From an uncultured Rhizobium sp. (lineage in GTDB: Bacteria > Pseudomonadota > Alphaproteobacteria > Rickettsiales > UBA1997), in NCBI GenBank assembly GCA_964537735.1, contig CAZICL010000002.1, forward strand, positions 66,573 to 130,572: a stretch of 64,000 nucleotides of DNA, given 5' to 3'. Below are positions 9,104 to 11,164 of the stretch, piece by piece (position 1 is the stretch's first letter; each line of letters begins with the position of its first letter). Both the position numbers and the translations under genes were made by a program. The notes under the pieces were generated by a model that saw only the letters and a program-made list of their open reading frames with translations, searched no databases and was not told where the DNA came from.

Positions 9104-11164
9104 ATGAGACCAGATTTAAAAAAAGGCTTTGATGATTTGGGAGACCTTACCAGGTGGAATTTATCACTGGTTAAAAGTCAGGTCTTCACAAGAGAAGATT
9201 TTGAGAATGTTGACGTCAAGAAGGTGGGCGGAACTGTCGGTAAAATTGTTAGATATGTTCAAGGAAAAGGAGAGGATCAATTCTGGTTATTAAAAAAAAG
9301 TGGCAGAACTCAGATTGATGATAAGGCTCTTGATGTTGGTGAGGATCCTGAGATAGTTAGATCGCGCAGCATTATTGTTCCTGAAAAATTACAAGAAGGA
9401 ATTAGCGAGAGTTTTAACGAAAAATGTGCTGCTCAACTGTTCGACATTATAAAACAGCGTCCAGGATATTTACCGCAGTTTGCCTTAGTATCCTCAACTT
9501 TTAATTCGGAGAGCTCTGAAAAGAAAGTTACCAATAAATTTAGAAAAGATGCCCTAAAAGTTTATGTCGCCTCCAAAATTATTGGCAATAATCCGAAGTC
9601 AATTAATGAAGGAGATGATGGTCATAATATTCACCTTCTCGATCGTCGCAGACCAAGTCATCCTGAGCTATTGGAAGATGTAATTGACGATGTTTGCGAA
9701 AATGCCGTCATCATGTTTTTATTGTCTAATTATGATGTTAAAATTGATAATTTTTTTCATTCTGAAGAAAATCCCAAATGGATGGTTCCAATCGATTTTG
9801 GTCATGCCAGACATGATGAGAAATCTTCAGCAGATATATTTGATGGGATAGACCTGATCAGAAGGGCTCGTACAGGAATGACTAAGGTTTTATCTGATAC
9901 TTTTTCTAATCGTCCGATGCAAAGTTCATTTGTTAAAAATAAGGATTATATCGGGACTCAAACTTTTTATTATAACAACTTAAAACCGCGGCATTTTATT
10001 GAAATTATTGATACGATAAATGGTGATCCGCAAATTGAACAGAAGCTGCGCGAAACTGTTTATGAACTTACTTTTGGAACCCCGCAGGATAAGGAAGAAT
10101 ACGCTAATATTATTACGACCAGAGTTAGAAATTTATTAAAGATCAAAAATATTTTTGAGACAATCGATCCAACAACTTTTCCGGATAAAAACCTGCGTGA
10201 TATTGTTGCTAATAGTCAAGAATTTGAAGATGACCTTAAAAACACTAATCATTCCAAGGGTAAGGAATTTTACCGTTTAATTTTTGATGTTTTTGAAAAA
10301 GTAGAAAAAGATTGCAGATCAATTATTGCAAAGCTGGAACGATATTTAGAAACCGAAAATATGTCAGATAAGGAAGAAATTGGTGCGCAAATAGTTGCCC
10401 AGGTTCATGAGTTTAATGCCGATGCCAGAGTTGCATCGCAAAATGTAAAAACTTCTCTTGAGGAAGTGGAGACGTATTACCAAGATTCTGAATATTTTAG
10501 ATCTGAATCCGGCAGGCGGGATAGTTGGAACTCATATAAAAGTGAGATAAATTATAAGTTAGATTATTTATTTGGAATGTTGCTGGCACCTTTTGAAGAG
10601 GAAAAAGCTGCATCGGAAGTTAGTTCGGAAGATGAAAAATTTAACTGGGAAGTTAGTGATGAAGAATCAGAGCAAAGTGAGCGGGAAAGTTTTGATGAAG
10701 AAAGTGAGAGAGAAGATGATGAAAGTGAAACAAGCTCTTCTAAATCTGAAAAATCTGGATCTACTGTTTCTTCCAAAAGCAGTGATGAAAGCTATATTCC
10801 GCAAACTCCTTCCAAACCAGTTTTAACAAGAGCTGTAAGTTTGGAAAGTCCAGATTGGGACTTAAATAAGTGTCAGGTTTATAAAGAAAATCTGGACTTG
10901 TTATTGGGGCAAATTTCCGATTGGCAAGGTCAAATCAAAAAACAGACCAAGCTTTTAATGACTCACCTCATGGCTTATGATGAGCTGCAAAATGTAAGGG
11001 AGGACTATAGAGAGCAAAATACTTTTTTAAGACAGGAAAGTGAAAATTCTCTGCAAACATTTGCTGAAGAAGCTAGGAAGCAGAGAAAGAAGCCTGAAGG
11101 GAAATCAGTTACTCCGATCTCGGGAAGCCAAAAAAAATTAAAAATAGTGTCTGCAGAAAGATAG
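9104..11164 (+). CDS. Hypothetical protein with protein-kinase-like motifs and an acidic Ser/Glu-rich, coiled-coil C-terminal half (effector candidate)
   Basis: Motifs in canonical kinase order: GGTVGK, FWLLKK, NYDVKIDN (DxKxxN), IDFGHA (DFG). I recognise no closer family. Confidence 0.45.
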   Translation: MRPDLKKGFDDLGDLTRWNLSLVKSQVFTREDFENVDVKKVGGTVGKIVRYVQGKGEDQFWLLKKSGRTQIDDKALDVGEDPEIVRSRSIIVPEKLQEGISESFNEKCAAQLFDIIKQRPGYLPQFALVSSTFNSESSEKKVTNKFRKDALKVYVASKIIGNNPKSINEGDDGHNIHLLDRRRPSHPELLEDVIDDVCENAVIMFLLSNYDVKIDNFFHSEENPKWMVPIDFGHARHDEKSSADIFDGIDLIRRARTGMTKVLSDTFSNRPMQSSFVKNKDYIGTQTFYYNNLKPRHFIEIIDTINGDPQIEQKLRETVYELTFGTPQDKEEYANIITTRVRNLLKIKNIFETIDPTTFPDKNLRDIVANSQEFEDDLKNTNHSKGKEFYRLIFDVFEKVEKDCRSIIAKLERYLETENMSDKEEIGAQIVAQVHEFNADARVASQNVKTSLEEVETYYQDSEYFRSESGRRDSWNSYKSEINYKLDYLFGMLLAPFEEEKAASEVSSEDEKFNWEVSDEESEQSERESFDEESEREDDESETSSSKSEKSGSTVSSKSSDESYIPQTPSKPVLTRAVSLESPDWDLNKCQVYKENLDLLLGQISDWQGQIKKQTKLLMTHLMAYDELQNVREDYREQNTFLRQESENSLQTFAEEARKQRKKPEGKSVTPISGSQKKLKIVSAER

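Follow-up and report, generated by a model that had tools for sequence, protein, structure and literature searches.

Among the means by which intracellular bacteria manipulate their hosts, kinase-fold effectors rank with the most informative, and new chemistry has been discovered through several of them. Within the Rickettsiales, Risk1 and Risk2 have been described as 'cryptic' phosphatidylinositol 3- and 4-kinase (PI3/4-kinase) effectors whose catalytic and activation loops are their sole recognisable features, with no similarity elsewhere; roughly 300 Risk-type proteins have been reported in this order (PMC11077975, PMC7298712). Here we analyse a gene at positions 9104 to 11164 of a 64,000-nucleotide (nt) stretch of DNA (hereafter the window; contig CAZICL010000002.1 of assembly GCA_964537735.1, positions 66,573 to 130,572 of the forward strand), which originates from a groundwater metagenome and which the Genome Taxonomy Database lineage places in the Rickettsiales. 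On balance we favour the view that its product belongs to a small, unannotated family of the protein-kinase-like (PKL) superfamily and is most likely a catalytically active ATP-dependent phosphotransferase.

The open reading frame (ORF), whose coordinates include the stop codon, begins with ATG and encodes 686 amino acids. The original prediction, made from the sequence and its translations, had recognised kinase motifs in canonical order in this protein and proposed it as an effector candidate; its ORF and all of its coordinates proved correct when the sequence was read again. The codons gat gtt aaa att gat aat at 9734-9751 encode D211 to N216 of the DxKxxN motif, and gat ttt ggt at 9794-9802 encode D231 to G233. 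We aligned 20 family sequences, extending down to about 20% identity, and built two AlphaFold2 models: model 1, from six sequences and restricted to residues 1-498 (pLDDT 71.5), in which the catalytic segment is poorly modelled, and model 2, from 20 sequences and full length (pLDDT 77.5, pTM 0.79; the five models ranged from 74.5 to 77.5). The features on which the kinase assignment turns are as follows.

9104 to 11164 (+): whole gene, encoding a 686-residue putative kinase-fold family member (ORF list, translation, 26 relatives).
9182 to 9577 (+): predicted kinase N-lobe, residues 27-158 (secondary structure of model 2, Foldseek kinase matches).
9218 to 9244 (+): Gly-rich loop candidate KKVGGTVGK, residues 39-47, between beta1 and beta2 (alignment, model).
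9293 to 9295 (+): K64, candidate ATP-anchoring beta3 lysine, in LLKK (strand 60-71 of the model, conservation).
9380 to 9454 (+): helix C equivalent, residues 93-117, with ESFNEKCAA (alignment, model).
9722 to 9754 (+): putative catalytic loop LSNYDVKIDNF, residues 207-217 (invariance, hhalign pairing).
9794 to 9802 (+): DFG motif D231-F232-G233, with a candidate Mg2+-binding Asp (codons, invariance, hhalign pairing with DFG184 of PKA).
9818 to 9862 (+): short activation-segment equivalent and the next helix, residues 239-253 (alignment).

Only eleven columns of the alignment are fully invariant (20/20), namely N209, D211, K213, D215, N216, F217, D231, F232, G233, D250 and R253, and the proposed motif positions are found among these few residues. 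Among the sequences that cover each position, K64 is kept in 18/18, E106 in 19/19, E102 in 18/19 and G42 in 16/16. Because the motifs are conserved across an alignment of this depth they are more than chance resemblances, and their invariance in 20 members implies that purifying selection is concentrated on the beta3 Lys, the helix C Glu, the catalytic loop and DFG. The Gly-rich loop candidate held in part: its first Gly, G42, is constant and T44 occurs in 14 of 16 sequences, but the second Gly, G46, in only 11 of 16. Residues 239-253 comprise E239 (19/20), a tripeptide [S/N]-P-D whose Asp, D244, is kept in 19/20, and then GIDLIR, which contains the invariant D250 and R253; position 243 is Pro in 17 of the 20 members and Ala in the window protein. 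We tentatively read this segment as an APE-like motif; the SPD-type motif comes only 13 residues after DFG. Measured against the subdomain motifs of eukaryotic-type (Hanks) protein kinases (ePKs), DxKxxN and DFG are invariant and GxTxG is partial, while LLKK stands for VAIK, SNYD for HRD and [S/N]PD for APE. The catalytic residues expected of a PKL protein, K64, E106, D211, N216 and D231, are all conserved and lie on the matching elements of the predicted structure.

In model 2 the N-lobe is formed by strands beta1 (33-38), beta2 (44-51), beta3 (60-71, carrying K64), beta4 (126-132) and beta5 (151-158), together with a long helix C (93-117) that holds E102 and E106. A helix at 190-206 leads into the invariant loop (207-217), short strands at 217-219 and 227-229, and DFG at 231-233, beyond which the model remains helical as far as residue 494; the acidic linker (500-575) is disordered, the hairpin (587-661) is helical and confident, and the tail is again disordered. 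As modelled, the order of elements is the canonical one of a protein-kinase-like domain, and a bilobal PKL fold is predicted. Foldseek searches of the PDB returned kinase or pseudokinase domains as 48 of the 50 top matches of model 2 and kinase domains as all 50 top matches of model 1, with E-values that are marginal throughout (best 6.5e-3, to JAK2 with model 2; none at or below 1e-3). Motif conservation and structure searches, the two points on which the original prediction could have failed, together support the assignment of the N-terminal 250 to 350 residues or so to a protein-kinase-like domain, and we regard a kinase fold, as predicted by these models, as very likely.

The remainder of the protein comprises the following elements.

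9116 to 9169 (+): N-terminal helix, residues 5-22, ahead of the kinase N-lobe (model 2, pLDDT about 90).
9839 to 10585 (+): helical C-lobe and helical bundle, residues 246-494 (model 2, pLDDT mostly 85-97).
10601 to 10828 (+): disordered acidic Ser/Glu-rich linker, residues 500-575 (pLDDT about 30, composition).
10862 to 11086 (+): C-terminal helical hairpin, residues 587-661 (pLDDT about 90).
11093 to 11161 (+): basic tail, residues 664-686, disordered and without family-wide conservation (model, charge).

The N-terminal helix has the family pattern LGxLLxxNLxL, and within the helical C-lobe and bundle family conservation reaches about residue 440. The acidic Ser/Glu tract noticed in the original prediction is confirmed (32% D+E, 33% S+T, net charge -16), and its composition, not its sequence, is kept in all full-length members. 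The heptad-like C-terminus described there is indeed modelled as helical, but as the hairpin of a folded helical domain and not as a free coiled-coil tail; a family-wide motif, WDLxK...LLTHLxAYDxLxxV, marks this hairpin even in the most distant subgroup. Likewise the extreme C-terminus is basic in the window protein (net charge +8 over the last 30 residues), but this is not a family trait: the three closest proteins carry +8, +6 and +3 there, and the other 15 range from -3 to +4. Disorder and a high Ser/Thr content characterise the tails, a basic charge only some of them, and by sequence the family has no common basic, disordered C-terminal signal. No hydrophobic N-terminus, Sec signal or transmembrane segment was found in the window protein (maximum Kyte-Doolittle value 1.31).

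The protein had been called an orphan, and this holds for its annotation, since it has no Pfam, NCBIfam or PDB sequence match, but not for the protein databases, where an exhaustive HMMER profile search of 1.84 billion cluster-representative proteins retrieved 26 relatives (clustered at 50% identity), with no canonical kinase among them. Five relatives, not counting the protein itself, came from a word-indexed search of 5.8 billion proteins. Pfam and NCBIfam returned nothing meaningful for the window protein, and PDB sequence searches with the protein and with family profiles gave no kinase among their matches. Scanning 20 family members against Pfam gave no match to Pkinase (PF00069) even at E <= 1, none to PI3_PI4_kinase (PF00454) and none to the Kdo/WaaP, APH or choline-kinase families; judged by sequence, then, the family falls outside both Pkinase and PI3_PI4_kinase. 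We discarded as noise a DUF1993 match that fell below threshold (E=0.027), together with further Pfam matches seen in one member each. We also rejected mimicry of a KIX domain. A phmmer match of residues 335-405 (nt 10106-10318) to p300/CBP KIX (E=1.6e-4) spans nearly the entire KIX domain; in a 62%-identical homolog it has E=55, other members have no match, and family profiles gave no KIX match among PDB sequences at E <= 10. Because it is not common to the homologs and is lost with family profiles, the match is best taken as a chance resemblance between helical segments.

All relatives are of metagenome or metagenome-assembled genome (MAG) origin; of the MAGs with a homolog, two bear the label 'Rickettsiales bacterium' and one the label 'Pseudomonadota bacterium', and the family is present in only 3 of about 185,000 species-representative genomes. 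The VirB10 protein encoded in the window, by comparison, shares over 50% identity with more than 120 relatives, those with organism names being MAGs of Rickettsiales, Proteobacteria/Pseudomonadota or Pelagibacterales bacteria; the kinase-like family is thus restricted to one part of a far larger clade of uncultured bacteria. There is one copy of the gene per locus, with no paralogs in the window or in related loci, and a tblastn search of 72,556 plasmids for plasmid-borne Risk2-like relatives gave no match.

The family resembles Risk1 and Risk2, LepB and LegA5 of Legionella and OpiA of Francisella in that the kinase is recognisable only by its active-site loops, and it shares with Risk1 and Risk2 the taxonomic setting of Rickettsiales with an rvh/VirB type IV secretion system (T4SS). 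It differs from them in that a search of the 1.84 billion with the family profile yields just the 26 members, none identifiable as Risk1- or Risk2-like, and in that the catalytic loop of Risk1 is of the DRHxxN type with an essential His, H297, where this family has an invariant Lys. The structural templates for Risk1 and Risk2, CtkA and LepB respectively, are both absent from the top 50 structural matches here. The family fits the 'cryptic kinase' concept but is not demonstrably a member of the Risk group. With other translocated effector kinases, namely the LegK family (Legionella), YpkA (Yersinia), OspG (Shigella) and NleH (E. coli), HopBF1 and XopC2, it has in common a kinase domain fused to helical or disordered regions, no Sec signal, and a genome that also encodes a secretion system directed at hosts (PMC9950578). 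No sequence relationship to these effectors was detected, however, and the surroundings of the gene are operon-like and of housekeeping type, not those of an island.

We envisage catalysis by analogy with the canonical kinase mechanism. ATP would bind between the beta-rich N-lobe and the helical C-lobe, under the G42 loop, with K64 on beta3, held by E106 or E102 of helix C, positioning the alpha and beta phosphates. N216 and D231 of DFG would bind Mg2+, D211 would act as the catalytic base, and K213 would touch the gamma-phosphate, the part that this Lys plays in Ser/Thr kinases. Together, the helical bundle (about residues 285-494) and the hairpin at 587-661 may form a targeting or scaffolding module, with the acidic Ser/Glu linker as a flexible loop. 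With the catalytic set kept in this way, the protein is probably an active phosphotransferase, and the combination of a D-x-K-x-x-N loop with DFG makes a Ser/Thr protein substrate most likely.

The comparison with ePKs (PF00069; for example PKA, JAK2, PERK and MEK1) bears on this substrate. Common to both are the predicted bilobal fold and order of elements, the sequence of motifs from Gly-rich loop through beta3 Lys, helix C Glu and D-x-K-x-x-N to DFG, and the Lys two residues after the catalytic Asp (D+2). In contrast to ePKs, the family shows no significant sequence similarity to them, lacks the His and Arg of HRD (its loop reads S-N-Y-D), has a Gly loop of the form GxTxG instead of GxGxxG, and carries an insert of 20-30 residues between beta3 and helix C; its activation segment is very short, SPD replaces APE, and there is a helical and acidic C-terminal extension of roughly 350 residues. 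When family and ePK profiles were aligned with hhalign, D211, K213 and N216 paired with D166, K168 and N171 of PKA, and DFG231 with its DFG184, in a match that is not significant.

The best-surviving alternative is that the protein is a lipid kinase, resembling type II phosphatidylinositol 4-kinases (PI4KII), that acts on phosphatidylinositol of a target-cell membrane in the manner of Risk1/Risk2, LepB/LegA5 and OpiA, with the helical domain as a membrane- or organelle-targeting module; we consider this unlikely. PI4KII-alpha (4hnd_B) gave the closest superposition in both models (TMt 0.48, root-mean-square deviation 7.3 A and probability 1.00 with model 2; TMt 0.44 and probability 0.97 with model 1), PI4KII-beta, PI3K-delta and Vps34 were also among the matches of model 1, and the named top matches in a viral structure library were Ser/Thr kinases and a mimivirus-family PI3K. 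Foldseek E-values for ePKs were nevertheless equal or slightly better. The invariant N209-x-D211-x-x-x-D215-N216-F217 shares four identities (N209, D211, D215 and N216) with the PI4KII-alpha loop N-T-D-R-G-N-D-N-W, a sequence verified against 4HND, and F217 faces the Trp, in an hhalign register that is not significant (P=0.56). In comparison with type II PI4-kinases generally (PDB 4HND, 4HNE, 8A5X; PF00454) the likeness extends to the loop pattern N-x-D-x-x-x-D-N-aromatic and, by eye and without statistics, to the helix C pattern E-x-x-A-[AS]-x-L-x-D; the segment 'IDFGHA' of the window protein also resembles the 'HIDFGH' segment of PI3K. On the other hand, PI4KII has Gly where the family has K213 and 'IDNG' where it has DFG, the family lacks the palmitoylated CCPCC insertion, and PI4KII is otherwise a eukaryotic family. 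A Lys at D+2 is the signature of Ser/Thr protein kinases (Hanks subdomain VIb); this residue is the invariant K213 in our family, Gly in PI4KII, and His in PI3Ks and in Risk1. The H297A substitution inactivates Risk1 (PMC7298712), and Rickettsiales are documented to have cryptic PI3/4-kinase effectors of which only the active site is recognisable (PMC11077975, PMC7298712). By sequence, the catalytic loop is a hybrid of the ePK and PI4KII patterns, and as its substrate we provisionally rank a protein first and a phosphoinositide second. We set hhalign aside as a means of telling ePK from PI4KII, because both target profiles were shallow: the ePK profile consisted of PKA and CDK2, and the homolog search for PI4K2A had returned vertebrate orthologs only.

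Whichever its substrate, we infer that the most likely role of the favoured phosphotransferase would be to enter another cell, either a protist host or a competing organism, through a VirB-type T4SS, and we regard such an effector function as plausible, if tentative. Rapid divergence around a frozen catalytic core, a long acidic disordered linker and an N-terminus free of a Sec signal would all suit a factor that comes into contact with proteins of another organism, as would the T4SS genes and the gene for an RNI-type leucine-rich repeat protein in the window. The T4SS components that had been noted in the window are indeed present.

4417 to 5742 (+): TrbI/VirB10 T4SS component (Pfam PF03743, E=1.2e-48).
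58669 to 59667 (+): VirB11-type secretion ATPase, T2SSE family (Pfam PF00437, E=9.7e-31).

Several observations weigh against a delivered kinase. The basic tail is limited to the window protein and its two closest relatives; hhalign gives P of about 0.005 and a probability of 7% against ePKs and P=0.56 against PI4KII, neither of them significant, and Pfam Pkinase and PI3_PI4_kinase match none of the 20 members. The neighbouring genes are of housekeeping type, the GC content is host-like and co-transcription is probable. The purine-biosynthesis enzymes encoded in the window imply that the organism may not be an obligate intracellular parasite, and an extracellular life has been predicted for basal Rickettsiales with an rvh T4SS (PMC11077975). 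Any target cell might thus be something other than a classical host.

Some of these points lead to a second alternative, a kinase that is not secreted and works inside the bacterium, either as a regulatory Ser/Thr kinase or as a kinase of small molecules, sugars or envelope precursors tied to the galU-type and fabD-type neighbours; this we hold to be rather improbable. Many PKL families, such as the aminoglycoside and choline kinases and the WaaP/Kdo kinases, are cytoplasmic small-molecule kinases. The upstream neighbour is as follows.

8223 to 9098 (+): NTP-transferase gene (Pfam NTP_transferase), named galU in the original prediction.

The gap between its stop and the start of the kinase-like gene is 5 nt, as had been reported, with no terminator-like site between them, and co-transcription of the two genes is plausible; promoter and terminator scans gave nothing above shuffled expectation. 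The arrangement recurs in GCA_964832585.1, whose homolog (P0010) sits in the same nine-gene block as the window gene, in the order AlgX-like, PurM, acyltransferase/hydrolase, VirB10, PPDK regulator, NtrC-like, GalU-type, kinase-like gene and FabD-type. The gene has a GC content of 36.1%, against 37.5% for the window, and both its GC and the GC of its third codon positions (GC3) match those of its neighbours. Because of this match and the conserved block, recent horizontal transfer or an island location can be rejected, and the gene is an old, vertically inherited, fast-evolving resident of its lineage. In other subgroups the preceding gene is pgk or one for PBP2; in every case a housekeeping gene lies upstream on the same strand, and no member-wide secretion signal is seen; all of this would suit an internal kinase. 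Since the flanking genes vary among subgroups (galU-type, pgk, PBP2), however, there is no conserved linkage, and we rejected a functional tie to the galU-type gene. Further against an internal role, the kinase-like protein is only 34% identical between the two genomes, where its block neighbours are 55-87% identical (GalU-type 87%, FabD-type 83%, VirB10 55%); known small-molecule kinases have nothing like its helical extension of about 350 residues or its long, disordered acidic linker, none of the Kdo/WaaP, APH or choline-kinase families matches it, and the family occurs only in a T4SS-bearing, Rickettsiales-like lineage.

A more far-reaching proposal, which we think improbable, is that the family represents a bacterial kinase lineage lying between Hanks-type kinases and the otherwise eukaryote-specific type II PI4-kinases and serving as a T4SS-delivered effector of environmental, protist-associated, Rickettsiales-like bacteria; in that case it would form a third class of rickettsial kinase effector and give a clue to where type II PI4-kinases came from. 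The hybrid loop S-N-x-D-x-K-x-D-N-F followed by DFG would be its hallmark, and the enzyme would make phosphatidylinositol 4-phosphate on a host compartment or phosphorylate proteins of that compartment. The weakest alternative, a kinase fold with another chemistry or none (a pseudokinase scaffold, or AMPylation or glutamylation as in SelO and Legionella SidJ), draws on the repeated finding of other reactions in kinase-fold bacterial effectors, such as SidJ polyglutamylation (PMC6858067), on the partly conserved Gly-rich loop (G46, 11/16) and on the unusually short activation segment, but is very improbable, since strict conservation of the beta3 Lys, helix C Glu, catalytic Asp, Asn and DFG Asp leads one to expect phosphotransfer and disfavours a dead pseudokinase, and neither a second nucleotide pocket nor a calmodulin-binding IQ motif was identified.

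The family is thus a new sequence-orphan family in a known superfamily, with the architecture of a kinase domain, a helical bundle, an acidic disordered linker and a conserved helical hairpin, and genome annotation leaves it 'hypothetical' because Pfam, NCBIfam and PDB sequence searches miss it. If the protein is active and secreted, it would add a new class of kinase effector in the Rickettsiales beside Risk1 and Risk2 and offer a handle on how environmental relatives of the rickettsiae interact with their hosts. Its likeness to type II PI4-kinases would also be relevant to how that eukaryotic family arose. Should it prove to be a kinase working inside the bacterium, it would still represent a new PKL family. 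As atypical kinase families are now fairly often found by structure prediction, and the source organism is uncultured, we consider its significance moderate. The family is a clean candidate for testing, with obvious point mutants.

Other features of the window concern its secretion genes, the lifestyle of the organism and further unannotated ORFs. The VirB10 and VirB11-type genes are solitary, about 53 kb apart and surrounded by housekeeping genes, a layout that recalls the scattered rvh genes of the Rickettsiales. At 54558-55565 (+) lies the gene for the 335-residue RNI-type leucine-rich repeat protein (LRR_6, E=4e-33), which is eukaryote-like and a second effector-type candidate. Genes at 1052-2065, 15413-15919, 27953-29374 and 40774-41946 have products that match, in this order, PurM-type AIR synthase, PurE-type AIR carboxylase, a PurF-type combination of glutamine amidotransferase and phosphoribosyltransferase, and the CarA-type small chain of carbamoyl-phosphate synthase; the retention of genes for de novo nucleotide biosynthesis implies an organism less reduced than the classical obligate intracellular Rickettsiales.

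A giant ORF of 2021 residues at 15929-21994 (-) has no Pfam match at E <= 1e-5 and is a possible surface or effector candidate; because its start overlaps a Mur-ligase ORF (21861-23246) by about 130 nt, the true start may be further downstream. Another ORF, of roughly 500 residues and without a Pfam match, lies at 43411-44916 (+) after carA and an Mrp/Nuo antiporter-type subunit, and a 479-residue gene product, also without a Pfam match, is encoded in the same position on a distant relative's contig (L007, 11071-12510, -), which, were the two proteins homologous, would make this a conserved three-gene cluster. The ORF at 13359-14411 (+) encodes a 350-residue protein with a prokaryotic N-terminal methylation motif, as in type IV pilins and pseudopilins, and a long Ser/Thr/Asn-rich C-terminal part. 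Finally, the 1015-residue leucyl-tRNA synthetase encoded at 36787-39834 (+) contains a Transglut_core match (PF01841, E=2.8e-8) at residues 393-496, just past the editing domain, and such a transglutaminase-like insertion is unusual in this enzyme.

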